Shown: positions 5,257-33,720 of the stretch, piece after piece
How positions within the stretch are numbered: the stretch's first letter is position 1
Layout of the letters: the number at the start of each line of letters is the position of its first letter
UHGV virus genome: UHGV-0103155
Source: a virus
Reading direction: 5' to 3' (one strand)
Length of the DNA: 39,184 nt
Translations under genes and position numbers: made by a program
The notes under the pieces: generated by a model
What the model saw: the letters and a program-made list of their open reading frames with translations, nothing else
What the model was told of the DNA's origin: nothing
The model's database searches: none

Positions 5257-5514
5257 ATGCAGCAGTATCACTATCCACTGGAAGACGGATTTACCGAAAG
5301 GATTCACACGCCGGGAGGCGTCAGGTCACTGGTGGAGGGATCGCACTTGATGAAATTACTCCGGGATCTCGATAAGGATGGATTTAATGTCGATGGCCCA
5401 CTTGCCGAACTGACTGCACTGATTAACTACGTCACCAGCTCACAGATGTCTATGCAGGATCTACAAACACATCTCGACTATTGTGCCGAACAATTACGAA
5501 AACAAACCAGATAA
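5257..5514 (+). CDS. Small antirepressor-type protein (C-terminal domain of the downstream antirepressor alone; Tum/Gifsy-antirepressor-like context)
   Basis: 85 aa from internal ATG; clearly similar to the C-terminus of the 5830-6540 product; LexA box immediately upstream. Confidence 0.55.
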   Translation: MQQYHYPLEDGFTERIHTPGGVRSLVEGSHLMKLLRDLDKDGFNVDGPLAELTALINYVTSSQMSMQDLQTHLDYCAEQLRKQTR

Positions 5515-5545
5515 GGTTTGCAATTACCAAGTGGAGTGCTTATAT

Positions 5546-5560
5546 TTACCTTTGAGGTAA
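5546..5560. promoter_or_regulatory. Palindromic operator-like site TTACCTTTGAGGTAA
   Basis: Perfect TTACC-N5-GGTAA, itself flanked by inverted repeat GGAGTGC/GCACTCC. Confidence 0.45.
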
Positions 5561-5651
5561 ATTTACAACGCACTCCTCTTATGCCATAGTAATCGGGCAC
5601 TGGCAAAATCCAGTGCCGGGATTGGCGTCCCGGGTTACTAAGTGGCGCATA

Positions 5652-5680
5652 CCACGCCAGACGTGGTTTTTTTATGCGTT
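5652..5680 (+). terminator. Rho-independent terminator
   Basis: Stem ACCACG/CGTGGT with 5-nt loop followed by T7-8 run, after the small antirepressor gene. Confidence 0.6.
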
Positions 5681-5829
5681 AAGCACAGCTATATCCGAAT
5701 TATGGTGGGCTGGGCAGGGGTCCGAAAGGACGCCGGTACCACTTAGGCCGGTACGCCAACCTTGTCCAGTTCACCACCAGTAATTGGCGTTGCGGTGGTG
5801 ATTAAAATCACTAAGTGGAGATAACCACC

Positions 5830-6540
5830 ATGGCTAATGCTCAAACTGCCATCTTCAAATTTGAATCTGTTAACCCTATCCGTTCCATCATTATCGATGG
5901 CCAACCATGGTTTGTAGCCCAAGACGTTTGTAGTGCGCTGCGTATCCAAAACGTCACCCAAGCACTTGAAAAACTGGATGATGATGAAAGGTCTATGTTC
6001 AACATAGGGCATGAACATCGTGCAATTTTTGACAGCCGAGTAAAAGAGATCAACATCATCTCCGAGTCAGGCCTCTACACACTGATCCTCCGCTGCCGCG
6101 ACGCAGTGACACCAGGCACTATCCCCTACCGCTTTCGTAAATGGGTTACAGGTGAGGTTCTTCCTCAGATCCGCCGCACCGGAAGTTACATTAAAAACTC
6201 GCTCCCGCAGGAAGAACGCATAAAGATGGTTGCCGACCAGGTAGCCAACGCCACGGCGTCAGCAGTAATGCAGGCGATGAAGATAGAGAACAAAACCTAC
6301 AGCGCCCCGCTGAAGCCCGGCTACCGCAGCCTGATTCACTCGCCGTCTGGTGTTCTCGGCCTGACGGAGAACTCACTGCTGATGAATCTGCTGAACCAGT
6401 TACAGGACGACGGGCACGACGTATCGGGCGCGGCGGCGGAGCTGACCACCATGTTCTGCTACATCGTCGGTGTGAGTAAATGCCTGCGTGATATCCAGAC
6501 CCACGCGGAATACATCAACGACAAAGCAGGGTTCTTCTGA
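5830..6540 (+). CDS. Antirepressor, Bro-N domain family with Ant-like C-terminal domain
   Basis: N-terminal region resembles Bro-N/phage antirepressor domains; C-terminal domain paralogous to 5257-5514; GGAG before ATG. Confidence 0.75.
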   Translation: MANAQTAIFKFESVNPIRSIIIDGQPWFVAQDVCSALRIQNVTQALEKLDDDERSMFNIGHEHRAIFDSRVKEINIISESGLYTLILRCRDAVTPGTIPYRFRKWVTGEVLPQIRRTGSYIKNSLPQEERIKMVADQVANATASAVMQAMKIENKTYSAPLKPGYRSLIHSPSGVLGLTENSLLMNLLNQLQDDGHDVSGAAAELTTMFCYIVGVSKCLRDIQTHAEYINDKAGFF

Positions 6541-6684: not shown

Positions 6685-7317
6685 ATGAGAACAAATACAA
6701 CAAGAAAAGCGATGCCATACATTATCCCAGAAGCAGATTTCGATAGAAAACTGAACATGTCTGAGAAGAACACTAGTCACACCGAAAGCTACTTAGCGAA
6801 AGGTGTGGTTGATTTCGTTCTTCCGGGATTCACAACACCTTATGGTTATCGCCTTGTAAAATCTTGTAATGGCGATCATTACAGAATGATTACTACCAGC
6901 GATACTCCAGAAACGGTGTATGCGGTTAAGTTAATCTTTCGGGAAGATATCGTCGAAGCCAAAAGAACATGTACGCAGATCATGGTATGGCGTACGCCTA
7001 ATGTTATTCATGACCGTGCTGTTCATGGTTTGCCTCAGATTTTTTTTCAGTTCTTCCTAGAGCAATATGCGATCGTTGTATCTGATGAGCAACAAACAAT
7101 CGATGGGAGAAGATTCTGGGAAAGAATGATTTCTTGGGCTATAAACACCCCAGGATATAATGTATACGTTTCAGATGGCTCTGAAGAAGATAGACCTCTT
7201 AGCTTCATGACATCATGGGATGATTTCTATAGCCAGTGGGCTGATTTCTGTTGGGGCAGTGATAAAGATGTGCATACCCACAGACTACTGGTTATAAGCA
7301 AAGATAAACTGCATTAA
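6685..7317 (+). CDS. Hypothetical protein, AT-rich single-gene cargo (moron)
   Basis: 210-aa ORF with strong GGAGGA RBS, own upstream operator-like site and downstream terminator; Trp/Phe/Tyr-rich; no family recognised. Confidence 0.6.
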   Translation: MRTNTTRKAMPYIIPEADFDRKLNMSEKNTSHTESYLAKGVVDFVLPGFTTPYGYRLVKSCNGDHYRMITTSDTPETVYAVKLIFREDIVEAKRTCTQIMVWRTPNVIHDRAVHGLPQIFFQFFLEQYAIVVSDEQQTIDGRRFWERMISWAINTPGYNVYVSDGSEEDRPLSFMTSWDDFYSQWADFCWGSDKDVHTHRLLVISKDKLH

Positions 7318-16017: not shown

Positions 16018-18488
16018 CAGAATCCCCCAACAGTAAGGCGAGGAATAACGGCAAGAACAGACAGCGGCAACGGGTCAAGCTGACGGATTCTTACACGTCC
16101 GTTTTTGCCCCAGTTACTGTCCAGTTTCACTTCTACTTTTCCGGTAGCGTCATCAACAGGATCATCGTAGAACTCGAATTCACGCTGTGGATATTCGTAC
16201 CATTTACCGCCGGGCGTAGTCGCCCAGATGCCGCGACTGGCATTCACAACCAGAGTAACGGAGGGGATCACCTGTTTTTTGTCCAGCAGCGTTTCCTGTC
16301 CGTTAATGTTGATATCCAGTGTTTCGAATTCAGCAGTTATTGGCAGGCCGATGTGCACTACAGCACCCGGAGATTCCAGCGTGACGGCACCTCCGGAAAC
16401 CACTTTCTGTGGTTCCACGTTCGCATCAGAGAGAATGTTTACGGTCTGGCCTTCAAGATGAGACAGGCCTCCAAATGTCCGGCGCGCCATCTGCCAGTTC
16501 GTGGTGGCCACATTCCTGAGGGATGGCGGGACGTTCCTGTTAGCACGAACCACTACAGCGGTATTGCTGGTTACAGAAATAATGTCGCAACGTAATTCTT
16601 TTGACACTTCATCGCCAGTATCAGGATCAGTTCCGGTATAAGGGAACTGTAGTTGAGCACCGACATCACTACTGGTGAAGTACGCACCACCAGAAACACT
16701 GATTGTATATTCCGCGCGGTAATCCCATTCACCAGAACCACCAGTGATGGTCATCGTTCTGTCAGACGTATTTCTTCCATCATAGCTAAGGCCAGAATCA
16801 ACAAAGAAAGCATCTTCATCGCTGGTAAATAAACGGCTGGACAGCCGCTCGATGTATCTCACTGTTTGCCCGTTAACGGTTCGGTTAACGACGAAATACA
16901 CCGCATCTTCATTGCCTTCGCTGATACTGCATGTGCTTTCATATTTTCCGGTACTGGATTGTGGTGCCCATGCAAAAACCTGCTGATCACGCAAATAGGT
17001 CATCACCAGTAATTTACCGTCATCACGAATGCAGAAGGCACTTGAGTAAGGGACAATCGAGAAGCACCAGTCAACAATGCTGTGCTTCTGAAAAAGATGA
17101 TTGGCAAGGATAGTAAGGTCGTTCCCCTGATAGCCGTCAACATCGAATGAGTAGGCCAGATCACGGACAACACTGCCTTTCTCCTGGACGAACAGAGCAA
17201 TATTCGCCACGGCAATTGGTGGGACATTGCTCGAGCCATTTGATCCCTGAGAGCTGAATGCAAATGATGATGGGGTTAACACTTTGTTCTGGTCGCCGGT
17301 GATGACGTACTCACCTCCGGAAGTCAGTGCCACCAGCGAACCAACATCAATCAGGTGGCGGATCTCATTAACCTGACGCCCGGCATAGGTGTAGATAATT
17401 CTGTCGTCATCCTGCGTAGGATTGCTTTTGCCAAAATCCTTATAATCCCCGGTACGGCTGGCCCAGATAGTCTGAGGGAACGCAGTCGATGCGGCGAAGT
17501 AAAGACGCTGTTGATAATAAACAACAGTGCCAGGATAACCATTAACACTGTTCCAGGCATATTTAGCCCATTTATAGCTGGCATTATCCTCGCCAACGAC
17601 CTGCGAAGGGATATAGGAAATCACCTCAGCAGTTGCAGTAGTGCCATTTACAGCAGTTATACGGGCAATGCCAAAACCACTGTGCAGATACTCCCACTCA
17701 ATGCCGGTATCATCATCACCGGCTCCGCCCCAGCCATCCCATGATGTGCCTTCTGTATGCGAAGGGCGCAAAGTACCTGTTTTGCCTGCTGTAACGGCGC
17801 GATAGTAGTTACTGTCTGCACGGCGAATATCGCCAATCGACGTACTCTTACTGGTTTCCCATACCGGCACAGAATCCACTGCAGGCTGTTCCAGGTAGAA
17901 CAATTTGCCTACCTGCTCCGCGCCAAAAATAGAGGCGCTTGCCGTTAACGTAATTGTCCCGGTGCTGGCGCTGGCATAAACCGTCACTGACTCGTCAATA
18001 TTGATATCTTCAAATGGCCCGTTCTTCGTTACCACATCAACCAGTTGCCAGTTGTCATGCGCATAGCGACGCAACTCTTTCGGCGGGTATGCCGGATGAA
18101 CCAGCGTAAGCACGTCGGCGCTTTGCGTGAATTTAATTCGGAACAGATCGGCTTCAGTATATGGCGTGGCAATTTCATAAATAACATTGCTGCTGTTCAG
18201 CACCAACGCACCATCTTTGATAACGCGCATGTACTGGTGTCCGAACTCCAGAGCATAGGTCTGAACCGTCGAGAACTGGAACGGGATCAGGCGGCATTTC
18301 CGATTTGGGTATTTGGCGGCACCGACAAAACGCGTACCAGGTCGATTCTCAACGCCGCCATACTGCCGCACGATAAAGTTATCGCACTTGCGCAATGCCA
18401 CCTGGTACTTCGCCATGTCAATACGCCCGTACAACGACGGTCCAATCTCACCACCGGCAAAGCTGGGCTGGATCCAACTGATAGCCAT
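16017..18488 (-). CDS. Tail tubular protein B-like (T7 gp12-like nozzle)
   Basis: 823 aa; segment …QQRLYFAASTAFPQTIWASRTGDYKDF… resembles the conserved gp12 region; follows gp11-like gene. Confidence 0.6.
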   Translation of the reverse strand: MAISWIQPSFAGGEIGPSLYGRIDMAKYQVALRKCDNFIVRQYGGVENRPGTRFVGAAKYPNRKCRLIPFQFSTVQTYALEFGHQYMRVIKDGALVLNSSNVIYEIATPYTEADLFRIKFTQSADVLTLVHPAYPPKELRRYAHDNWQLVDVVTKNGPFEDINIDESVTVYASASTGTITLTASASIFGAEQVGKLFYLEQPAVDSVPVWETSKSTSIGDIRRADSNYYRAVTAGKTGTLRPSHTEGTSWDGWGGAGDDDTGIEWEYLHSGFGIARITAVNGTTATAEVISYIPSQVVGEDNASYKWAKYAWNSVNGYPGTVVYYQQRLYFAASTAFPQTIWASRTGDYKDFGKSNPTQDDDRIIYTYAGRQVNEIRHLIDVGSLVALTSGGEYVITGDQNKVLTPSSFAFSSQGSNGSSNVPPIAVANIALFVQEKGSVVRDLAYSFDVDGYQGNDLTILANHLFQKHSIVDWCFSIVPYSSAFCIRDDGKLLVMTYLRDQQVFAWAPQSSTGKYESTCSISEGNEDAVYFVVNRTVNGQTVRYIERLSSRLFTSDEDAFFVDSGLSYDGRNTSDRTMTITGGSGEWDYRAEYTISVSGGAYFTSSDVGAQLQFPYTGTDPDTGDEVSKELRCDIISVTSNTAVVVRANRNVPPSLRNVATTNWQMARRTFGGLSHLEGQTVNILSDANVEPQKVVSGGAVTLESPGAVVHIGLPITAEFETLDININGQETLLDKKQVIPSVTLVVNASRGIWATTPGGKWYEYPQREFEFYDDPVDDATGKVEVKLDSNWGKNGRVRIRQLDPLPLSVLAVIPRLTVGGF

Positions 18489-19096
18489 CAGGACAACCTC
18501 GCAATGGTAAACTCATCAACCGGTGGCTGTGGTTCCTGTGATTCATTCTGGCTATGCGAGCCAGCACTAAGAATCACGCGATTGTACATATTGAGGGCAA
18601 ACGTACCGAGGTCTGCATTCCCAGTCAGCGCCATGTTAATAGCTGCCGCAAGACGCCAGGCCAACGCCTCCATAAAAATGGCATCAAACATGTTCACATC
18701 TGAAACGCGAGAGACATACTTGAGCCATGCCTGCGGCTGGTCTGTGTAGATCAACTTTCCTGTTCCGTTGGTGTCTGCACCAACTTCGTACTGAACGCGC
18801 ATTGCTGCTGTTGGATTGCGTACACCAGGAAGCATAATTTCAGTAATGCGCAGACAATCGGACGGGTACTGGTACGCATATTCCCAGTCAGGCGGTGGAT
18901 TGTTCGTATCTGCAAGCGCCACGCGTTTGGTAGCAAAGTTCCAGTCAAAATCAGAAAGCACAGCATCACGGCAGGCCTCAAAGTGCAGCGAACATTCCCC
19001 TGCTTCCTTGCTGGCTTCCGTCAGGCTGTTAATGCTGCGGCTGTTGCCAATATTGGACAGCGCACGATTACAGATCTCTACTACAGAGGCCATCAC
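18488..19096 (-). CDS. Tail tubular protein A-like (T7 gp11-like adaptor)
   Basis: 202 aa, immediately upstream of gp12-like gene, N-terminal similarity pattern to gp11. Confidence 0.5.
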   Translation of the reverse strand: MMASVVEICNRALSNIGNSRSINSLTEASKEAGECSLHFEACRDAVLSDFDWNFATKRVALADTNNPPPDWEYAYQYPSDCLRITEIMLPGVRNPTAAMRVQYEVGADTNGTGKLIYTDQPQAWLKYVSRVSDVNMFDAIFMEALAWRLAAAINMALTGNADLGTFALNMYNRVILSAGSHSQNESQEPQPPVDEFTIARLS

Positions 19097-19422
19097 TCAC
19101 CCCCGTTACCGTAGAGGGTTTCAGCCGCTGATTTTTCTACATCACCGGAAACAGGAGCGATTGCCATATCAGTGATCTGCAGATCGGCGCTGCGATTAAC
19201 ACCATCGTCAGTTTCTCTGGCAGACAGGCCTCGAATAACAGCCTTTGCAGTTATCATCACTTCTGTTCCGACGCCCTGAGGTTGCGCCTTCAGCTTATTC
19301 AATGTGTCGTTATTAAGAGTGATGCACAGCCCCCACGGGTATTCATCGCGAGTTCTGGTTTCTCCGCTCTCATCCTGGTAGCTGTCAGTGCCGGTTTTGA
19401 GGTTTACGAGTTCCATATACAC
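19093..19422 (-). CDS. Hypothetical structural-module protein
   Basis: 109-aa ORF coupled to gp11-like gene. Confidence 0.4.
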   Translation of the reverse strand: MYMELVNLKTGTDSYQDESGETRTRDEYPWGLCITLNNDTLNKLKAQPQGVGTEVMITAKAVIRGLSARETDDGVNRSADLQITDMAIAPVSGDVEKSAAETLYGNGGE

Positions 19423-19466
19423 TCCTGCAATAAAGGGGCCGAAGCCCCTTGTCGGATTCGCGAGGC

Positions 19467-19811
19467 TTACACGCCCAGTTCTTTACGCTTATCTGCGATC
19501 TTCTCGCGGAGCGTTTCGGCTTTAGCGTTATGGTGTGGCTTCTCGTTAAAGAGCAATTCGTACTCTTCACGGAGCTTATCCAGTTCACCATCATCTGACA
19601 CATCATTGATGATTTTGGTGCTGGTTGCTGCCATTGACACCTTTCCTGCAACTTTTGCTTTTGCCTGTCTGGCTGCATCGTTAACAGGTTCCAGTGCGCT
19701 ACCAGGCTCACCTTCGTATTCGATTTCTGCCCCCTCCGGCCACAGAGTGTTATGGATATGAGAGAGGCGCAGAACGCGGTATCTTGGTTTCTCACCTGAC
19801 ATCGATATCAC
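19467..19811 (-). CDS. Hypothetical structural-module protein
   Basis: 114-aa charged ORF; hairpin (about 19432-19451) separates it from the next gene. Confidence 0.4.
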   Translation of the reverse strand: MISMSGEKPRYRVLRLSHIHNTLWPEGAEIEYEGEPGSALEPVNDAARQAKAKVAGKVSMAATSTKIINDVSDDGELDKLREEYELLFNEKPHHNAKAETLREKIADKRKELGV

Positions 19812-19812
19812 C

Positions 19813-20250
19813 TTAACCAGTTACTTTTGAGCGGATCGGATACGGCGTATTGGCATCAACATCAAGGCTGATACCAGCAGAGAATTCGCCAGCCGTTAGT
19901 GGGCCAGTTGCGACGGAGTAGTTAACACGCAGATATCGCTGAACACCGGCAGGCACCTTTGCAGAAACAACTCGTTTACCTGCTGTCAGGGCGGTCTTTG
20001 CCAGTGCGCCACTATCATAAATAGTGGTCCATGAGCTGTTATTCTCACTCGTCTGCAACTGGATGTTTACAGTTGCATCACCGCTTGCCGCGGCGGCTGT
20101 GTTAACCAGCGCCCAAAACTCAAGCGGGTAACCCACGCCGATATCACGACGTTTTCCGTCAATTGGACCGAGATCGATTACGTCAGTAGAAGCCGCGGTA
20201 TTCGTAACCGCCTGAGCTTCGGAGAACATCAACAGTTTGTCGGTGATCAT
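19813..20250 (-). CDS. Hypothetical structural protein (possible capsid decoration/staple protein)
   Basis: 145 aa, Ala/Thr/Ser-rich, immediately downstream of major capsid gene. Confidence 0.4.
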   Translation of the reverse strand: MITDKLLMFSEAQAVTNTAASTDVIDLGPIDGKRRDIGVGYPLEFWALVNTAAAASGDATVNIQLQTSENNSSWTTIYDSGALAKTALTAGKRVVSAKVPAGVQRYLRVNYSVATGPLTAGEFSAGISLDVDANTPYPIRSKVTG

Positions 20251-20301
20251 CTTCTTTCTCCATTAGTGGGTCTGTTACGACCCACAGGTTAATAACAGGC
20301 G

Positions 20302-21294
20302 TTACACCACGCGGGCTTCTGTTTCCAGAAGCGCATCAGTTTCACGGATTGGTACACCACGGAATGAAGTCCACCACTCGCCTTCTGTCTCTTTTACGCT
20401 GATCGCCAGAGATGTTTTCTCCAGAGATTGCAGATCAAGAGCCTGGCCTACAGTGCGGTTCATGTAGAACACCGGGCGACCCATGCCACGGTTTGGAATT
20501 CGATGCAGTGCTTTAACCATCAACTTCGCAATATTTGCGGCAGAGGAAGGTTCTGAAAGATTGCTGACATCGATGTTTGCAATGCGAACAACATAACGCC
20601 AGTCACGCAGAGCAAGTCCGTTGTCCCATTTGTAATGGGTACGGTAGCCTTCGTACTTGCCGCCATTAGCATCTTCCAGTGTCACCTGGCCTTTATCTTC
20701 CATCTGGATGCCAGCCTTCTGCCCTTTCGGGAAGATGCCATGCACGGTGTTTTCGCCCCACACCACTAACCAGATTGAGGTGTTATCTGTCCCCGTGCCA
20801 CCAGCATCAATGATGTTCTGAGCATTACCCGCAGACAGGCTGGAATAGCGGGAGGACAGTCCCATAAACTGCTGAGGGTTAACGCTGGAATCACCATAAA
20901 ACAGCGTCTGCGCCATCTGCTGATTCATCGCTTCAATAAATGCGCGGTCTTCAGACAGGCGGAATTCGGCGGTATTGCCGTTCAGATCAGCCAGTGACTT
21001 ATCGACTTCAGCATAGGTTTCCAGCATGCCCACGGAATCGGTTACCTGCACTGTGGTTGATTTGCTTGGCTGTACGCCATAGTTCAGCAAACGCCAGGTA
21101 GCTGAAGGTAAACCAGAACGAATGGTGGTGCGGTGTCCGGTTGGAAGGTTGCCTTCGACAAAAGGCATATCCTGAAGGATCGGGTTAGTTTGACCGAGAA
21201 GCTCGATAATCTTATCGACTTTCCCGTTTGGATCGACGCGCTTACCCCAGTCAGCCAGCGTTAGCGCAGTTAAGCCTTTAACAGACATTGTCAT
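20302..21294 (-). CDS. Major capsid protein
   Basis: 330 aa, follows scaffold gene; sequence character of HK97-fold podoviral coat proteins. Confidence 0.75.
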   Translation of the reverse strand: MTMSVKGLTALTLADWGKRVDPNGKVDKIIELLGQTNPILQDMPFVEGNLPTGHRTTIRSGLPSATWRLLNYGVQPSKSTTVQVTDSVGMLETYAEVDKSLADLNGNTAEFRLSEDRAFIEAMNQQMAQTLFYGDSSVNPQQFMGLSSRYSSLSAGNAQNIIDAGGTGTDNTSIWLVVWGENTVHGIFPKGQKAGIQMEDKGQVTLEDANGGKYEGYRTHYKWDNGLALRDWRYVVRIANIDVSNLSEPSSAANIAKLMVKALHRIPNRGMGRPVFYMNRTVGQALDLQSLEKTSLAISVKETEGEWWTSFRGVPIRETDALLETEARVV

Positions 21295-21302
21295 TTCCTC
21301 TC

Positions 21303-22004
21303 TTATTTGCCATAGAGCACTTCGGCCGCACTACGCTGGCCTTCATTACCACCGGTGACCATGCCATCTTCAGACATCGCCTTTCCGATTTTCACGAACG
21401 TTTTGACCAGATCAGGGTGATTACCCAGCCCGGTGGTGTTCAGATATTCTTTGAGTTCAGGTGTCCCGAACTGGTCAAGCGCACGCTGTGCGGCGCTAAG
21501 GTTAGAAATCAACTTGTCGCCACCGATTTCTTTGTCAGCTTTTACATCCGCAGCCCACTGCTCGGTTGTTTTCTGCCAGGCTTCTGTCTGGCGCTGCTGA
21601 ACACCTGCCAGAATCTTCGGATAAGCATCAACCAGCTTTTGCGCTTGCTCGTTGGTCAGGTTAAGTTCTCGCGCCACCGGCTCGAATTCCTTCAACGCTT
21701 CTGTATCCAGCTCTACGCCTTCGGCAGCCTGAAACTCGTACTTCTCAGGCGCACCCTCTGGTTTATCGCCGTCCTTTTTTTCATCCTGCTTATCGTTTTC
21801 AGGCTTTTTGTCATCAGCAGGTTTATCGCCATCAGCAACAGGTTGTGGCTTATCACCTTCCTGTTGTGATGGATCACCAACTGGAGCAGGGTTATCACCT
21901 GCAGGCGCTGACGGTTCTGACGCAGCCGGAGCTGCTCCACCATCGACTGGTTGCTCATTGCAAAGACGGCTATACAGCAAACGCTCAAATAAATTCATGA
22001 TCAC
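21303..22004 (-). CDS. Scaffolding protein
   Basis: 233 aa, highly acidic Pro/Asp/Lys-rich low-complexity N-half and helical C-half; between portal and capsid. Confidence 0.65.
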   Translation of the reverse strand: MIMNLFERLLYSRLCNEQPVDGGAAPAASEPSAPAGDNPAPVGDPSQQEGDKPQPVADGDKPADDKKPENDKQDEKKDGDKPEGAPEKYEFQAAEGVELDTEALKEFEPVARELNLTNEQAQKLVDAYPKILAGVQQRQTEAWQKTTEQWAADVKADKEIGGDKLISNLSAAQRALDQFGTPELKEYLNTTGLGNHPDLVKTFVKIGKAMSEDGMVTGGNEGQRSAAEVLYGK

Positions 22005-22297
22005 TCCTGTTCACTGGCCTCTTTGGCCATCTTCAAATACTGTTCAGGGCAATGCGCCATAACGCGCTGAAACAGTTCCAGCGCCAGATTGCGTTGCCCC
22101 TCATTAAATGCCATTGCCATAGCGTCCATCGGTGAGATAGCGGAAAACACACGGCCTTTCTCCAGCACCGACCAGACAACGCGACGCCCCTGTTCACTGC
22201 TCATGACAAAGCGAATGTCATCAATTTCACGCTGTGCCATGTCACGTTGCTTACGGGCGTTTTCTTCTTTCAGTTGATCGTCTTCGTAATCTGTCAT
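22001..22297 (-). CDS. Hypothetical head-module protein
   Basis: 98-aa charged ORF coupled between portal and scaffold genes. Confidence 0.4.
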   Translation of the reverse strand: MTDYEDDQLKEENARKQRDMAQREIDDIRFVMSSEQGRRVVWSVLEKGRVFSAISPMDAMAMAFNEGQRNLALELFQRVMAHCPEQYLKMAKEASEQE

Positions 22298-23973
22298 TGT
22301 GATTGCCCACCCTGACCACTAACTGCATTAGCCATAGCTGACAAAACACTCGGATCCGAAGTTTTAGCTTCGCTTAGCGTCTTGGCACCCTGTGCCGCCG
22401 CCATCCCCATCGCCATCATTTGTTGCTGCTGTTGCTGCTGTGCCCGTTGCTGGCGAGCCTGCTCAACCTGTTCCTGCGGAACAATGACGGTTGGAGACAC
22501 TCCGGACATATCAGCGAATGCATCGATCGCCTGATCAACGTTGAGTTTGTCGAGAGCTTCTGGTTTCGCTTGCGCAAGTTGACCAATGAAGTTAACCGTG
22601 GACGCCAGACTGGACAGGCCGATAGACTTCTGCGCCTGAGCCATGACGGAAATGTATTCGACCTTCAGGGGCATACCTTCCATCGCGTCAGGCGGTGGCG
22701 GCAGCATGTTTTTACGCACCATCATCGAGAAAGCGCGGTCAATGAGAGGGTTAAGACATTCGTCGTTCAGACGCTCCAGAACCGGCCCCAACATCAGAAG
22801 CTTTTCTTCTTTCATTTCGATCACTGCTTCAACAGGCATCGAGCGGGTATTGATGTTCTGCAACATCATGAACAGATCGACAAAGTAGGCGCTGTTAATG
22901 ATTTGACGGGTGTCCTGAATGTCTGCTACCAAATCTGCTGTACTGGGGTTAACCAGATAAGCAGGCCTGAAGCAATCCTGACCAGTAATCTGATCGATAT
23001 ACGTGATGTCGCCAGGAAGAAGGGAGGCGCGCTGATTCTTGAGGGAAGTCGGAGCAACCATCGGCGGATCGGTGGCTTTATCAATCAACTGCGACTTGCG
23101 CTTCTGGAGAAGCTGCAATGCCTTAACAGGTCCAAGCGCCAGCATACCCGGGCATGATGATCCATAAACATCTTCGCCGTTAACTTCCCAGCGCGGAGCC
23201 ATAATTGGAAACTCATCGAATCCGGACTCACGCAACAACTTGTCGTTATCGCCACCAACCTCGTAATAAACCGATTTGAATGGCTTGTTCTTGCTATCCA
23301 GCTTCGATGTATCGCGGTCAATGTTCGGGTAAACCGAATGCATCACTTCAATCCACTTCTCGTAGGTGCCGCTTTCCCACATGCTTTTTACGGATTCGCT
23401 GACGTTATTTAGCCCGAACTCCTGAACAAGCTGACGAACAGTCATAGAGAACTTGCGAAAACAGGTGTCCACACTGCCACGAGGTGAGTTAGCCAGGTAG
23501 TAACTGCCTATCGGGAATGGCATTGTGCGAATGATGTCCTCGTCATCCTCCAGCACCGCCATTGCACCAGTGCTGTATGTGCCGAGGCTTCCGTATAACT
23601 GCGGAAGAGACTGGTAGAGATTCGACTTATTGAACATATCGTTCATGCGGTTCTGCACCGCCTCAAGCCACAACTTAACAGGGCCATAATCCATCATTTC
23701 AGGATCTGGCGTAGCCAGGCGAAACCACGGACGCGCGGGGCTTGTGATGCCTGACATCATGCCGCTGGCGAGAGTGCGCGCCGCCATAGTCCCGGTCGAA
23801 TCAATAATGCGTGTATTGCGTCGATCGTTACGGTTGACCTCAGAAGTCAGAAAGCGGGAACCACGCGGGTTGATGTAATCACTCAACTCGCGCCAGTGCG
23901 GCTCGAACGACTGACGCTCGCTTTCAAGTTGTGCGAACTGTTTGTTCAATCGCTCTTTAGTTGTTTCCGCCAT
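22294..23973 (-). CDS. Portal protein
   Basis: 559 aa, downstream of large terminase, Gln/Ala-rich C-terminal tail, upstream of scaffold/capsid. Confidence 0.8.
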   Translation of the reverse strand: MAETTKERLNKQFAQLESERQSFEPHWRELSDYINPRGSRFLTSEVNRNDRRNTRIIDSTGTMAARTLASGMMSGITSPARPWFRLATPDPEMMDYGPVKLWLEAVQNRMNDMFNKSNLYQSLPQLYGSLGTYSTGAMAVLEDDEDIIRTMPFPIGSYYLANSPRGSVDTCFRKFSMTVRQLVQEFGLNNVSESVKSMWESGTYEKWIEVMHSVYPNIDRDTSKLDSKNKPFKSVYYEVGGDNDKLLRESGFDEFPIMAPRWEVNGEDVYGSSCPGMLALGPVKALQLLQKRKSQLIDKATDPPMVAPTSLKNQRASLLPGDITYIDQITGQDCFRPAYLVNPSTADLVADIQDTRQIINSAYFVDLFMMLQNINTRSMPVEAVIEMKEEKLLMLGPVLERLNDECLNPLIDRAFSMMVRKNMLPPPPDAMEGMPLKVEYISVMAQAQKSIGLSSLASTVNFIGQLAQAKPEALDKLNVDQAIDAFADMSGVSPTVIVPQEQVEQARQQRAQQQQQQQMMAMGMAAAQGAKTLSEAKTSDPSVLSAMANAVSGQGGQSQ

Positions 23974-23987
23974 TTCAATGACTCCGG

Positions 23988-24194
23988 TTACTGACCAAGC
24001 AGCGTTTTACCGCTGGTATTAGCGGTTGATTTGTCGCCCTGAGAACCGGTAAGCAGCGTAGAACTACGACCAGCAGCAGCGCGACGGCGACGAGTTTCTT
24101 CGTCGCGGGCATCAACAACGGCGGCATCCTGCTCCTGTGGTGCTGCCTGAACTTCTGGTGTTGCAGGCACTGATGGTGAGCTACCCATGCACAT
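23988..24194 (-). CDS. Hypothetical small protein upstream of portal
   Basis: 68 aa; its RBS/start context (GGAGTCATTGAT-ATG) nearly duplicates that of portal. Confidence 0.35.
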   Translation of the reverse strand: MCMGSSPSVPATPEVQAAPQEQDAAVVDARDEETRRRRAAAGRSSTLLTGSQGDKSTANTSGKTLLGQ

Positions 24195-24262
24195 ATCAAT
24201 GACTCCGTACGCAATTAAACTATTACCAATTTAACCACATATGATTTATTTATCGTAGATAG

Positions 24263-24299
24263 TTGACATTTAACGCACAAATTATTACCTTTCAGGTAA
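24263..24299 (+). promoter_or_regulatory. Promoter (-35 TTGACA) with overlapping operator-like site TTACCTTTCAGGTAA
   Basis: Consensus -35 hexamer followed about 17 bp later by AT-rich -10 region overlapping a perfect TTACC-N5-GGTAA palindrome. Confidence 0.45.
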
Positions 24300-24620
24300 C
24301 CAAAGAGTTCATTCCGGTTACTAACCTGACTGGCTTGTCGTTAAATTGAACAGGTGGAGTGAGCTTTTATTTTGAGCAGTACGGCGTATGGCACATGCGC
24401 CGGTAGCGGTCTGGATACGTTTAAGGGGCACCCTCCCTTGCTCGGGAAAACGAACCAGGTAGCCGGAATGTGCAAGTCGAGCGGTTTTATTCCGCGCACG
24501 GGGATTCACCATCCCGGCGATTCGGTGTGACGCCTCGGAAGAGACGAGGGTACAACGATGAGAGCATTTATGGAGCCGCGACAAAGTGTGGCGCCTTAAC
24601 AGGCTAAGTGCTCTCAGCGT
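24300..24620 (+). ncRNA. Unassigned GC-rich structured non-coding leader upstream of tRNA-Arg (candidate ncRNA or degenerate tRNA remnant)
   Basis: No credible ORF on either strand; several internal inverted repeats; lies between promoter and tRNA. Confidence 0.2.
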
Positions 24621-24621
24621 T

Positions 24622-24698
24622 GTGGCATTAGCTCAGTTGGACAGAGCAACCGCCTTCTAAGCGGTTGGTCGCAGGTTCGAATCCTGCATGCCACGCCA
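24622..24698 (+). tRNA. tRNA-Arg (anticodon UCU)
   Basis: Cloverleaf readable: acceptor GTGGCAT/ATGCCAC, D-loop AGCTCAGTTGG, anticodon loop CTTCTAA, T-loop GGTTCGAATCC, 3' GCCA. Confidence 0.9.
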
Positions 24699-24742
24699 GA
24701 ATCACGCCTAAGGACCGTGATGCCAGAAGTTCCAGGGGCTTG

Positions 24743-24790
24743 GCGGTGATGGTTTCCCTTGAAGGGCTATCACCGCCCTTTTTACAGCAG
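24743..24790 (+). terminator. Hairpin GGCGGTGAT…ATCACCGCC followed by CTTTTT
   Basis: 9-bp stem with larger loop and T-run, just downstream of tRNA. Confidence 0.4.
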
Positions 24791-24857
24791 GACGCCATTG
24801 CGATGACTTCATGCTGTAAACCAGTACAGCCACGGAAGGCATAACTCATTGCTTCCA

Positions 24858-24882
24858 GTTCGCCCGGTTCGCCGGGCATTTT
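24858..24882 (+). terminator. Hairpin GCCCGG-TTCG-CCGGGC followed by ATTTTTTT (terminator or attenuator directly before the Gp49-like gene RBS)
   Basis: Perfect 6-bp GC stem, tetraloop, T7 run. Confidence 0.5.
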
Positions 24883-24901
24883 TTTAAGGTGAGATTAGAC
24901 T

Positions 24902-25273
24902 ATGAGTGACAAAGACATTGAATCTGAAATTCAGGCTAAAGGTTTAGCCGCGCCGCGCGTTACGCCAGACCATATCGAGAGCATTATTGCTCAGGAGGCA
25001 TATTTCACAGCAGAAGATGGTGTCTTTGGCGTAGCCATAAAAGCGAAACATACTGGCGGAGAGGTAAACTACCAGCCGCACGAATCACTTTCTCTGCTGA
25101 CGTTCTGCGTTCTGGTGCTGCGCAACGGCTTCACCGTCACCGGAGAGAGCGCCTGTGCAAGCCCGGAAAACTTTGATGCGGAAATTGGTCGGAAGATTGC
25201 CCGGCAGAATGCTGTAAACAAAATCTGGATGCTTGAAGGTTACTTGCTGAAGCAGAAGTTAAGCGAGCAATAA
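24902..25273 (+). CDS. Gp49-like phage protein (function unknown)
   Basis: 123 aa with AAGGTGAG RBS; sequence recalls the Gp49-type small phage proteins; opposite strand to flanking structural genes. Confidence 0.5.
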   Translation: MSDKDIESEIQAKGLAAPRVTPDHIESIIAQEAYFTAEDGVFGVAIKAKHTGGEVNYQPHESLSLLTFCVLVLRNGFTVTGESACASPENFDAEIGRKIARQNAVNKIWMLEGYLLKQKLSEQ

Positions 25274-25277
25274 CACC

Positions 25278-25289
25278 GTGACATGTCAC
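25278..25289. promoter_or_regulatory. 12-bp perfect palindrome GTGACATGTCAC (copy 2 of 3)
   Basis: Immediately after the Gp49-like stop codon, in the convergent gap facing the large terminase gene. Confidence 0.5.
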
Positions 25290-25320
25290 AAACAGCCAGC
25301 CGATGAGCTGGCTTTGTTTT
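25290..25320 (+). terminator. Rho-independent terminator
   Basis: Stem AGCCAGC/GCTGGCT then TTTGTTTT. Confidence 0.55.
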
Positions 25321-25363
25321 ATCCTCACCAGAGGATATCTCCGTCATTATCCCCGCTAACGGA

Positions 25364-26839
25364 TTAAGCATAGGGATCGTAATCTGTGATGGCCTTGCCT
25401 TGCTGGTTCTGCTGACCGGGAATTCGCAGACGCTTCGACACAGGGAACGCAAACGTCAGCAGTAGCGCATCGCCTTTACCAGGAGAACGCCCAAGCCGCT
25501 CTTTGATATCTTCCTTCGGTTCGATAACGATTTTACCGTCCACTCGAACTTTGTACTCTGCCGCCGACAGGTCGTCCGCTGTTTCATGGTCATCCAGCAT
25601 GCCGCCAAGCCTCAGCCATGTCTTGCATGAGTTGAACATCTCCCCACGCTTGTTGAGCATCTGCGGGTCAGTAGACGCGCCACCGAACGGAACAAGTTGC
25701 CATGTACGACCCCAGCCGTCACCGATTGACTTCAAACCGGTTCCGTAACCAAAGTCGATGAACACCGCGTCAGCCTGATACTGGTCTTCAAAGTCAGCGA
25801 TACGCTTCGCCATAATCAGATCGTCGGTAGTCTTGTTTCCAGTCCACAGCACCTTACTGTGTAGCCCCTGCCGCAGGTATATCACCGCGTCATCAACGCC
25901 TGAATATGCCGGGTCAACGCCGATTATCACCGGAGCATGTGCAACCTGCGCAGCGGTTACCACCCGTTTCATTGCCTCGTCAGTAAGGCCGGTAGGGATA
26001 AACTGCAATTCAGATGCATCAGGGAATATGCCACGCACACGGATTTTAACGAAGTCGCTGTCTTCCCCGTAGTCATCAACCCATTTCTGCAACTGCTGTT
26101 TGTTGGTACCTTCCACCGTCCGACTGTCAATCTGCGCAGTTTTCCAGCGGTGTTTATACTTGCGGAAACATTCACGGAAACGTCCGGTATTACGCGTCGG
26201 GTTTCCGAACGCCACCCAGATAATCTCAGTGTCTTCGTCCGTTAGCGCACCCTCGGCAACTTCCCACACCAGATCCGCAATGTTCGACGCTTCATCGAAT
26301 ACCACGATGATGCGTTTGCGCTCATTGTGTAATCCGGCGAATGCCTCAGTGTTGTGCTCAGACCAGGGGATTGCGTCAGCTCGCCACCGCTTGTCGTGCC
26401 CAGGGTCATTGCTGTACATCGCGGTAGCGGTACAGGTAAACCAGTCTTTCGTGATAGCAAGGTTCGACCACTTGATAATTTCCGGCCATGTCTTCGTTCG
26501 TAGCTGGTTGTCGGTGTTGGCGGTCACCACGACCTTACAATCCTCGCAAGTGGACATGCCCCAGTTGATCAGCATTGAGATGAATGCGGATTTACCAATA
26601 CCGTGACCCGAAGCACGTGCCAGCATAAGCGGCTGATAGCGCGTCTCTGGATTCTGCAGGTGGTCACGTATCTCTCGGAACGCATCGGCCTGCCACTGAC
26701 GTGGACCGGTGGCATGTGCCAGTTCAGTCCCCTCTTCCCCCCACGGGAACGCATAGAGGGCATAGCCAAGCGGATCGTGAGTGAACCCTGCAATATCCTC
26801 GATCAACTGCTCTTCAGGAGATAACGCTGTATCTGTCAC
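25364..26839 (-). CDS. Terminase large subunit
   Basis: 491 aa; N-terminal ATPase region with Walker A-like GHGIGKS and C-terminal nuclease-like region; coupled to small subunit gene (ATGA overlap). Confidence 0.85.
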   Translation of the reverse strand: MTDTALSPEEQLIEDIAGFTHDPLGYALYAFPWGEEGTELAHATGPRQWQADAFREIRDHLQNPETRYQPLMLARASGHGIGKSAFISMLINWGMSTCEDCKVVVTANTDNQLRTKTWPEIIKWSNLAITKDWFTCTATAMYSNDPGHDKRWRADAIPWSEHNTEAFAGLHNERKRIIVVFDEASNIADLVWEVAEGALTDEDTEIIWVAFGNPTRNTGRFRECFRKYKHRWKTAQIDSRTVEGTNKQQLQKWVDDYGEDSDFVKIRVRGIFPDASELQFIPTGLTDEAMKRVVTAAQVAHAPVIIGVDPAYSGVDDAVIYLRQGLHSKVLWTGNKTTDDLIMAKRIADFEDQYQADAVFIDFGYGTGLKSIGDGWGRTWQLVPFGGASTDPQMLNKRGEMFNSCKTWLRLGGMLDDHETADDLSAAEYKVRVDGKIVIEPKEDIKERLGRSPGKGDALLLTFAFPVSKRLRIPGQQNQQGKAITDYDPYA

Positions 26840-27432
26840 TGATTACCATCCTGACGTTCTTTGAGTCGCTTCCTGGCTGCCGCTATGCGATCAGCAATTG
26901 TCACATTCACATTAACATCCAGGCGTTCTTTGAACGCGTTGACGTCGACGTGCTTACCAATCAGTTCGAGGTTCTTCACCTTGTCAGGCCATTTAATTTT
27001 TTTGAGGATTGTCTCTATCGAATCCTCGTTCATGTTCATGATGGTCGATGACAGATCAAAGCCACTAAGCGTAGTGCGCCAGATTTTCGGCCACTCGCGG
27101 ATTGGCTTAAGGCTCCCATCGTCGTTGAGGATGTCGATCACGTCCATCTGGTCGATCTCCACCAGGCGCATGAGAACGTAATCAGCACTGACGCGCATTC
27201 GTTTGTTGCGCTCCTCCATCAACTCGGCAATCCGTTTTTGAATGCGTTCATCGCGCATCATGACACTGGCTTTAACTGCCGCTGTATTTGGGGAGAATCC
27301 TGCGTTAATCGCTGCCTGAGTCTGGTTTTCAGGCGTTTTGATGTATGACTGGCAATAAGCCTCCTGCATTGCTGTTAGTGGCTTAAATTGCGTTGATTTG
27401 CGTTTATAGGTTTTAGGTTCAGCAGGCATCAT
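26836..27432 (-). CDS. Terminase small subunit
   Basis: About 200 aa from internal start (MMPAEPK…) with AAGGTGG RBS; immediately upstream of and coupled to large terminase. Confidence 0.6.
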   Translation of the reverse strand: MMPAEPKTYKRKSTQFKPLTAMQEAYCQSYIKTPENQTQAAINAGFSPNTAAVKASVMMRDERIQKRIAELMEERNKRMRVSADYVLMRLVEIDQMDVIDILNDDGSLKPIREWPKIWRTTLSGFDLSSTIMNMNEDSIETILKKIKWPDKVKNLELIGKHVDVNAFKERLDVNVNVTIADRIAAARKRLKERQDGNQ

Positions 27433-27449
27433 AACCACCTTGGTAATAG

Positions 27450-27464
27450 TTACCGTTGTGGTAA
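27450..27464. promoter_or_regulatory. Palindromic operator-like site TTACCGTTGTGGTAA in small-terminase leader
   Basis: Perfect TTACC-N5-GGTAA about 20 bp upstream of the small terminase start, with additional half-sites around. Confidence 0.4.
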
Positions 27465-27541
27465 TAGTACCATGCAAAATAAAGCCGCCATAGTTGGCGG
27501 CAGTATTCAAAACCATCAAATTCATCATGCATAATCTACTC

Positions 27542-33644: not shown

Positions 33645-33720
33645 TTACCTTATGGGTAATTTTTTTAACTCATATCTATTGACATCAAACCAGATACGCA
33701 TAATAATTACCTCAACGGTA
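33645..33720 (+). promoter_or_regulatory. Rightward promoter region (TTGACA -35) with two operator-like sites (TTACCTTATGGGTAA, TTACCTCAACGGTAA)
   Basis: Two perfect TTACC-N5-GGTAA palindromes bracketing a TTGACA hexamer upstream of the recombination operon. Confidence 0.45.

Follow-up and report, generated by a model that had tools for sequence, protein, structure and literature searches.

Structured non-coding RNAs of several kinds are known from phages and prophages. ROOL and GOLLD are ornate phage and prophage RNAs that reportedly often lie beside tRNA genes, and in the C4 antisense RNA precursor of phages P1 and P7, as in MALAT1-mascRNA, RNase P defines the end of an upstream non-coding RNA by cutting at an adjacent tRNA-type structure. 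STnc100 and PasD are Hfq-associated small RNAs (sRNAs) that act by base pairing (bioRxiv 10.64898/2026.05.13.724894). The put RNA of phage HK022, which has no N gene, is a protein-free element (putL, putR) of ca. 70 nucleotides (nt) with two stem-loops located just downstream of PL, which works early and is governed by the repressor via PL/OL; in lambda, nutL-N occupies the corresponding position after PL (PMC9378689). Here we describe an RNA element in UHGV-0103155, a virus genome of 39,184 nt (the whole of this stretch is referred to below as the window), which is a phiV10/epsilon15-like (Uetakevirus) E. coli prophage. The element, a pseudoknotted RNA of ca. 170 nt located at positions 24376-24555 of the plus strand, upstream of a tRNA-Arg(UCU) gene, is hereafter called the core. 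It is a conserved, covariation-supported and horizontally mobile RNA module. We rate it as an RNA family absent from Rfam and of a known general kind, i.e., a phage structured non-coding RNA in an early leader. As to function, we tentatively favour, at somewhat less than even confidence, the reading that the core acts in trans, as a processed RNA made early that would bind a host factor.

The core resembles ROOL and GOLLD in being a structured phage RNA that adjoins tRNA genes. However, the latter are about 580 and 800 nt long and come from other bacterial phyla, their Rfam models do not match the window, and nothing indicates that the core multimerises. As with the C4 precursor and MALAT1-mascRNA, a helix following the core in the window (P6, see below) ends at tRNA position 1 and processing is predicted, and the window also encodes a C4 RNA; yet most members of the core family have no adjacent tRNA. 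With STnc100/PasD (RF02076) the core shares its occurrence as a non-coding RNA of lambdoid prophages, but it looks like a compact tertiary fold rather than a base-pairing sRNA, and STnc100 has no match in the window at E values up to 10.

Fold and conservation of the core RNA

Copies of the element were gathered by an exact scan of viral contigs for an invariant 19-mer and by searching species-representative genomes for another anchor motif; 22 of the 28 matches of the latter proved real by nhmmer. In the first alignment, invariant blocks were separated by hairpins with compensatory changes. The alignment used below (A1) comprises 39 sequences below 95% identity. Covariance model R1 matches the window over its full length with 142.8 bits (E = 8e-38), the sole match there, and hairpin P1, helix P2, hairpins P4 and P5, the 19-mer GGUAGCCGGAAUGUGCAAG and a CACC-GGUG pseudoknot are all present. 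The structure foreseen for the leader in the original prediction takes the form of a covarying, pseudoknotted fold.

All parts of this fold lie on the plus strand. Hairpin P1 (CGGCGUAU-GGCAC-AUGCGCCG, 24382-24402) covaries: at pair 11-23, 22 sequences have G-C and 15 have A-U, and pair 9-25 is G-C, G-U or A-U across A1. An alternative produced by RNAalifold, with GGCACAU paired long-range instead of in the local hairpin, was dropped; since hairpin P1 covaries, it was retained, and the long-range complementarity was treated as a possible pseudoknot. In this candidate (PK1), GCAC of the hairpin P1 loop would pair with GUGC of the 19-mer; the pairs are invariant and are therefore neither supported nor refuted by covariation. 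Helix P2 (24406-24414 with 24455-24463) encloses a variable distal hairpin carrying a conserved CCUUG; C-G is replaced by U-A in 12 sequences and G-C by A-U in four, while the distal part ranges from 26 to 50 nt across homologues.

The 19-mer (24458-24476; DNA form GGTAGCCGGAATGTGCAAG) is invariant or nearly so in every column of A1. It is unchanged in 21 of the 22 Enterobacteriaceae genome copies found via the different anchor motif, and it stays invariant though its flanks diverge by 20-30%. Further downstream, three of the four pairs of hairpin P4 (24501-24504 with 24512-24515) covary, and the loop of this hairpin, CACC (24507-24510), pairs with GGUG (24524-24527) in a pseudoknot (PK2) in which one C-G pair is changed to A-U in three sequences (UAACC with GGUUUGA). 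In hairpin P5 (CCUCG-GAAGAGA-CGAGG, 24533-24549, with 24533-24537 paired to 24545-24549), four of the five pairs are changed on both sides.

When this hand-drawn structure was placed on A1, 96.1% of cells were in standard pairs, and 13 pairs showed compensatory change, with 86 cells changed on both sides. None of 500 shuffles attained the observed values, a statistic that is inflated because the sequences are related. When the partners were slid by 1-3 columns, pairing fell to 24-45%. G-U pairs, e.g., the invariant U35-G96, are possible on the plus strand only, which suggests that the element is RNA and not a DNA site.

The core is flanked by two further structured segments. The 5' leader (24298-24375, plus strand) contains a hairpin, AGGTAACC/GGTTACT, and is conserved in Tyrion, PAT1, epsilon15 and a Klebsiella phage. 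The epsilon15 record carries a predicted RNase III site in this leader, and IHF sites are annotated as well. Judged by eye, the 3' part of the 5' leader resembles the 3' half of hairpins in lambdoid PL leaders (loci L017 and L042) that are similar to P6. On the other side, helix P6 of ca. 14 bp (24553-24566 with 24609-24622, plus strand; CAACGAUGAGAGCA with UGCUCUCAGCGUUG) is formed around two small hairpins, and its last pair would use G24622, which is position 1 of the tRNA. Of 51 distinct segments that contain P6, nearly all fold in the predicted way. Among 29 distinct strand combinations, duplexes of a strand with its own partner had a mean of -19.8 kcal/mol, compared with -15.3 kcal/mol for swapped partners; P6 covaries. 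Its distal part is variable, with a length of about 20-100 nt, and its 3' strand looks boxA-like (UGCUCUC) but is base-paired; we treat this as a lead only. T-arm-like hairpins (GGUUCGAUUCC, CUGGUUCAAUUCCAG) are seen in the P6 tip of five loci (L107, L135, L004, L010 and L011) and are missing from that of the window; these could be tRNA fragments or functional T-loops.

No family of Rfam 15 matched the leader, either at the gathering score or at E values up to 10, in the window or in the homologous leader of phage mEp460. A full-text literature search for the invariant motifs as DNA, RNA or reverse complement retrieved no relevant paper, and the element was not described in the literature on prophage structured RNAs, phiV10 tRNA-Arg, sRNAs downstream of cI, or put-like RNAs. 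The Pas sRNAs differ from the core and are located near Q and lysis genes. The original prediction had named assignment to a known Rfam element and lack of conservation as the outcomes that would count against it; the opposite was found on both counts, with no Rfam family and with strong conservation.

The leader (24300-24621) contains only open reading frames (ORFs) of at most 87 aa, none of them ATG-started. Lengths of the variable regions are spread evenly modulo 3 among homologues, and each reading frame is open in at most 15 of the 39 sequences; the element is thus not coding, and the claim of ca. 320 nt of non-coding leader stands. Several phage records do show ORFs here. Hypothetical proteins mEp460_037 (L009 1943-2311) and mEp390_036 (L013 2011-2253) are drawn over the RNA, one of them on the opposite strand; cdtI orf40 and Tyrion gp54 adjoin its flanks or overlap them, and hypothetical proteins are listed within the 701-nt query region in the records of phiV10, ZX5 and TL-2011b. 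The hypothetical-protein ORFs drawn over the element are probably spurious. Together with the T-arm-like GGUUCGAUUCC hairpins in the distal P6 of some relatives, annotated ORFs over or near the element in mEp460, Tyrion, mEp390 and phiV10 are what could be cited for regarding the leader as a decayed tRNA, a neutral spacer or a small coding gene. This explanation has a barely appreciable probability: besides the lack of a conserved frame, ARAGORN found no second tRNA in 24300-24621, the only tRNA-clan match in 24150-24950 at E values up to 10 was tRNA-Arg itself, and the covarying fold is not a cloverleaf. Conservation over three phage lineages and the invariant 19-mer rule out neutrality. The earlier suggestion that the leader holds remains of further tRNA genes is contradicted by the same results and by the finding that ca. 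60% of the fetched copies have no tRNA nearby. Of the other options then offered, an sRNA is right only broadly, in the sense of a discrete non-coding RNA, and a processed spacer undersells a conserved, horizontally mobile module.

Promoters, neighbours and genomic contexts of the core

In the window, the core is part of an island on the plus strand, located between large minus-strand ORFs at 22294-23973 and 25364-26839. In relatives, these are the positions of the portal/head-tail connector and the large terminase, and it is by position that the two ORFs were assigned; the island does run opposite to these flanking genes, as the original prediction had it. Over the 701 bases around the island, the window shares 98-99% identity with phiV10, with O157 typing phages 9 and 10 and with many E. 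coli chromosomes.

The island is preceded by a -35 element, TTGACA (24263-24268, plus strand), read from the sequence. The best -10 element at a 17-nt spacing is TACCTT (24286-24291), which together with TTGACA makes a sigma-70-type promoter at 24263-24291 (plus strand), and transcription would start at ca. 24298. Calling this a consensus promoter was half correct, since the -35 element is perfect but the -10 element matches at three of six positions; a promoter scan found no promoter-like site across 23900-25300. The -10 element is located inside a half-site of the operator-like sequence TTACCTTTCAGGTAA (TTACC-N5-GGTAA, 24285-24299, no strand assigned), so that the overlap of promoter and operator described earlier is present. 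The TTGACA-17-TACCTT arrangement with its operator is conserved in SPN9TCW-type relatives, and in the epsilon15 record a repressor-binding site is annotated in the homologous intergenic region.

Allowing for at most one mismatch, the window contains 15 TTACC-N5-GGTAA sites, 10 of them exact, compared with 0.72 expected, and none of 100 shuffles attained this number. The sites start at 1937, 5166, 5546, 6611, 24285, 27432, 27450, 30540, 30602, 32548, 32885, 32933, 33645, 33707 and 38961. Many are found in gaps separating long ORFs and several stand beside TTGACA-type hexamers, which suggests that the 15 copies may be the target set of a repressor in the prophage. At 33707, a TTGACA-17-CATAAT sequence is followed by the operator. 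The site at 5546 is followed by two known RNAs in tandem, isrK (5597-5673, 67.7 bits in Rfam) and C4 antisense RNA (5698-5781, 66 bits), which are located just downstream of this operator and upstream of a 241-aa ORF (5815-6540). The layout of 5546-5781 resembles the immI region of phage P1 (C4, then icd/ant).

The gene that follows the leader codes for tRNA-Arg with anticodon UCU and an encoded CCA (24622-24698, plus strand). It was called by ARAGORN and scored 73.3 bits with the Rfam model RF00005 (gathering score 29), in agreement with the original description as canonical; annotations of phiV10-type phages and RefSeq E. coli genomes already include the gene. The only unusual thing about it is that it is fused directly to P6 of the RNA upstream; otherwise it is ordinary. 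The proposal that it supports translation of AGA codons in late proteins fares less well. AGA makes up 8.0 per 1000 codons over 27 ORFs, which is several times the E. coli average, and to that extent AGA use is raised. However, no AGA codons occur in listed ORFs within 18488-27528, including those at the portal and large terminase positions beside the island. The codons are clustered, with 20 in ORF 2305-5061 and 10 of the 14 arginine codons of ORF 6685-7317. The tRNA probably assists in translating a small number of AGA-rich genes with accessory or tail functions, and not late proteins generally.

Two hairpins with T-runs, resembling intrinsic terminators, follow the tRNA gene on the plus strand, as was noted originally, and both were recovered by a terminator scan. 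T1 (24742-24777, with its tail to 24786) has a 14-bp stem followed by CUUUUU; T2 (24862-24877, with its tail to 24886) consists of GCCCGG-UUCG-CCGGGC followed by AUUUUUUU. A separate terminator scan gave -22.9 kcal/mol for T1 and -11.2 kcal/mol for T2. Only 16-17 nt past the T2 tail begins a gene of the Gp49/Sf6-gene-66 family (24902-25273, plus strand; Pfam Phage_gp49_66, E = 2.4e-35), before which no promoter was detected.

Outside the window, BLAST with the leader alone retrieved close Uetakevirus relatives, lambdoid phages (ca. 82% identity; e.g., cdtI, mEp460, 2H10, Ayreon and Stx2-converting phages) and P1-like phages (ca. 79% identity; P1, P7, D6, SJ46 and RCS47). Of 5,426 complete E. 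coli genomes, 1,840 contain the core; its matches number 2,471, including 554 located on plasmids, and among the matches listed there was no annotation beneath it. The commonest chromosomal version is located downstream of a ymfK-type repressor gene. The e14 prophage of K-12 has no core, though its repressor is also named ymfK, and this may explain why the core has been overlooked. All real matches in species-representative genomes came from Enterobacteriaceae, except for one contig of 1.7 kb (L158, JAIIAN010000430.1, 1753 bp) binned as a Bacillota metagenome-assembled genome. It carries a full-length core (138 bits by nhmmer) and is probably enterobacterial phage contamination or a binning error.

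Neighbouring tRNA genes are frequent but not constant. A tRNA-Arg(tct) gene stands at a fixed distance from the core in about 25% of the fetched loci, and tRNA-Ile2(cat) lies 14 nt upstream of it in ca. 15% (the phage P1-type copies), while ca. 60% of fetched copies have no tRNA within about 0.6-0.8 kb. The tRNA, being near the core in a minority of loci only, is thus a frequent neighbour and not part of the element. This bears on another explanation, by which the core would be a self-cleaving or otherwise catalytic RNA, or a structural cassette for processing or stability of the neighbouring tRNA or mRNA. The fixed distances at which the core abuts tRNAs would suit it, as would the long flanking hairpins of the kind cut by RNase III (with the site predicted in the epsilon15 record) and the combination of invariant nucleotides and pseudoknots that is typical of ribozymes. 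We nevertheless consider it improbable, in view of the many copies that have no tRNA nearby and the lack of a match to any known ribozyme family; moreover, a stability element needs no invariant segment of 19 nt that is apparently largely unpaired.

A gene for a CI-type repressor is located upstream of the core, on the same strand, in 69 of the 133 fetched loci. Nine different repressor sequences were tested and all matched helix-turn-helix and/or Peptidase_S24 families. With several repressor types, the order is the cI stop codon, an intrinsic terminator, operators, a sigma-70 promoter, a short leader and the core. The possibility that the core belongs to the cI transcript and is expressed in the lysogen, like rexAB, was rejected, because the terminator, operators and promoter separate it from cI. 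In mEp460, TTGC-N7-GCAA operators, of the same repeat family as a cI-cro intergenic site, are found upstream of the core. In L017-type loci (CI starting MRMKKKPLTAEQ), the promoter is TTGACC-17-GATACT with flanking operator-like repeats, which we take to resemble lambda PL closely. Since promoter and operators stand between cI and the core, the latter is at the head of the PL (early-left) transcript.

In lambdoid phages generally, roughly 40-90 nt separate a PL-like promoter with OL-type operators from the start of the core downstream, and the core is followed after about 130-270 nt by a strong terminator and then by the early-left genes; no promoter was detected between. A same-strand terminator was present within 700 nt downstream in 75 of 103 loci, compared with 40 of 103 on the antisense strand. 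The genes further downstream differ by context (YfdP/Q/R-type, ParB-like, RdgC, Ban and Gp49). In phage P1, the core is located between trnI and ban, inside the C1-controlled ban operon, ca. 2.3 kb downstream of Pban, with no terminator detected between core and ban. Phage epsilon15 keeps the promoter, operator, terminator and gp49-like gene, and has a truncated remnant of the core (L003 2539-2646; 41 bits with R1), consisting of hairpin P1 and little else. As the promoters are under the primary immunity repressor in three phage lineages, we infer that the core RNA would be an early lytic and not a lysogenic product.

The heterogeneity of downstream genes also bears on the possibility of a riboswitch-like sensor, in which the core, as an aptamer for a metabolite, a signalling molecule or uncharged tRNA, would adjust early transcription or the decision between lysis and lysogeny. 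Its pattern is aptamer-like (the nucleotides at junctions are invariant, there are pseudoknots, and the hairpins at the periphery vary), the core stands in 5' leaders upstream of terminators, and UGGC of the hairpin P1 loop could pair with the complementary GCCA at the 3' end of tRNA. We give this idea a low probability. No expression platform overlaps the core: 130-270 nt, with a tRNA or another structured RNA in them, separate it from the terminator; no Rfam riboswitch matches; and the genes that would be regulated have little in common. The trans-acting, host-factor-binding RNA that we favour has to be weighed chiefly against an action in cis, considered next.

Possible termination control and lambdoid leaders lacking N

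An elongation or termination control in cis would make the core a functional analogue of HK022 put, which binds the zinc-binding domain of RNA polymerase beta' and suppresses terminators downstream of it in cis, or of lambda N/nut: the nascent core would bind RNA polymerase, Nus or Rho factors and allow passage through the downstream terminators, i.e., T1 and T2 ahead of the gp49-family gene in the window and the strong terminator ahead of the lambdoid early-left operon. The distances of the core from the PL-like promoter and the terminator given above suit such a role, as do the excess of same-strand over antisense terminators and the start of the gp49-family gene shortly after the T2 tail with no detectable promoter. 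The put RNA is likewise found just downstream of PL (PMC9378689), and a location just downstream of an early repressor-controlled promoter was found for the core both in lambdoid contexts and in the window. No N-like protein was found downstream: the N family had no Pfam match among the scanned downstream proteins, and none is annotated as N in mEp460. A boxB hairpin was not seen in the window's leader, and a lambda-type N/nut system, with a nut site made of boxA and boxB and an N gene downstream of PL, is not what the locus presents. For N-less phages of the LLS group, LLS itself being reported to have no N homologue, RNA-based antitermination has been speculated (PMC12315714).

Against this explanation, which we hold to be rather unlikely, stands first of all the comparison of relatives. 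LLS, ST64B and SfV have the same early-left genes, leader architecture and terminator position but no core. The core is thus optional cargo that is not needed for expression of the early-left operon, which lowers the put-like reading and weakens the idea that the core replaces N in N-less lambdoid phages. In the same way, epsilon15 retains its terminator and gp49-like gene with only a core remnant, and in phage P1 the core is far from Pban with no terminator detected before ban. In other features the core differs from put. It is ca. 170 nt long and has two pseudoknots, compared with about 70 nt for put; a 24.5-kb segment of mEp460 that spans both early operons has a single core copy; and there is no similarity of sequence or structure. 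The best score of R1 on HK022 was 7 bits (E = 0.9), and blastn-short of the PL leaders against HK022 gave chance matches only.

Other parts of these leaders are better candidates for such control. N-less lambdoid PL leaders, with or without the core, contain one or more P6-like hairpins, CAAC-GAAAGCGC...GCGCUYC-GUUGUGG, and a long-range GUUGUGG...CCACAAC helix (GUUGUGGUG...CACCACAAC), and most of them have a GCUGUGUGUAGUC motif just before the strong terminator, mEp460 being without it. The shared architecture is found at L009 2170-2440 and, on the minus strand, at L164 4760-5010, L165 5400-5640 and L166 31900-32160, as well as in the L017 and L042 flanks. Some phages have a further P6-like hairpin after the terminator, and the 3' strands of P6-like hairpins are boxA-like. 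This P6-like/GUUGUGG architecture may be a real candidate for RNA-based antitermination in N-less lambdoid phages. The GCTGTGTGTAGTC motif of lambdoid leaders is absent from the window.

Two leaders have peculiarities of their own. In ST64B, an unrelated non-coding insert of ca. 330 nt (L165, about 5640-5960) occupies the place where mEp460 carries the core; SfV has a small ORF there. A comparison made to see whether the insert is a divergent core homologue lent this idea no support, even when filters were off. In ST64B, the 3' part of the PL leader (5465-5583, minus strand) gives a sub-threshold STnc100 match (35 bits, E = 8e-6, gathering score 47), which starts directly after a P6-like hairpin and ends near the terminator, in the same architecture that hosts the core elsewhere; nothing in the Rfam search of this leader matched the core. 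The window differs in that its core is upstream of P6, with the tRNA where ST64B has the STnc100 match. The PL leader of BUCT708 (L008) contains no fewer than six repeats of a hairpin or motif of the GCCGG-GAAAGA-CCGGC type (GGAAAGAC; 1860-1945 and 2310-2560), which stand before as well as after the core and its terminator. They have a boxB-like look and may be binding sites for an RNA-binding regulator.

Possible action of the core as an early trans-acting RNA

The reading to which we lean, an early, processed RNA acting in trans on a host factor, would operate as follows. The island would be an early "stable-RNA operon" under immunity repressor control. In the lysogen, repressor bound to TTACC-N5-GGTAA would occlude the promoter; upon induction or infection, transcription would start near 24298 and produce an RNA consisting of the 5' hairpin, the core, P6 and tRNA-Arg(UCU), ending for the most part at T1 and T2, and some transcripts would continue into the gp49-family gene. 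RNase P generally cleaves at the 5' end of tRNA. A cut between 24621 and 24622 would free the tRNA, and since the last P6 pair reaches tRNA position 1, the upstream RNA would be left ending flush in P6, which would be a protective 3' end. The 19-mer and the two pseudoknots would form an invariant pocket that binds a host macromolecule early in lytic growth, the core serving as a decoy, an inhibitor or an effector of the ribonucleoprotein type. Base pairing of the Hfq type or a tRNA-related role is less likely.

Several observations make us favour action in trans: the compact pseudoknotted fold, with its invariant 19-mer and peripheral hairpins that tolerate variation; the lack of a conserved adjacent protein gene, the restriction to Enterobacteriaceae and the cargo-like behaviour of the element; and the flanking tRNAs and long hairpins that would define RNA ends. 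The constancy of the 19-mer amid diverging flanks and the wide occurrence of the core in E. coli genomes are signs of selection. Processing to a discrete RNA is likely in view of the fixed distance at which tRNAs abut the core and of the junction of P6 with the tRNA, and as to stable RNAs arising from such leaders, the sub-threshold STnc100 match of ST64B offers a precedent. A number of points, on the other hand, weigh against this reading. The evidence at hand fits trans and cis action alike: the lambdoid core always stands between PL and a strong terminator preceding the early-left genes, and the window has, after two terminators, a gene with no detectable promoter, both of which fit termination control in cis. 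The scan did not call the island promoter, whose -10 element is weak. As to the fold, PK1 is based on invariant bases only, PK2 on one covarying column that probably reflects a single lineage, and relatedness inflates the shuffle statistics.

Going further, the core might represent a new class of RNA-only immediate-early phage effectors: its pocket would bind a conserved host factor of Enterobacteriaceae and neutralise or re-programme it. Candidates for such a factor include RNA polymerase, elongation factors, RNases and nucleases of defence systems. Lambdoid, P1-like and epsilon15-like phages carry the core as mobile cargo, often together with tRNA genes. We regard this proposal, taken as a whole, as doubtful though worth stating.

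About one complete E. coli genome in three has the core, as do the model phage P1 and Stx-converting phages. It is short and well defined, and it occurs in genetically tractable phages. One consequence for annotation is that several hypothetical-protein ORFs that phage records place over it are probably not genuine. Antitermination and anti-defence usually belong among the functions of the earliest developmental phase of phages, and the placement of the core in the first transcripts made after repressor release suggests that it may have a role in that phase.

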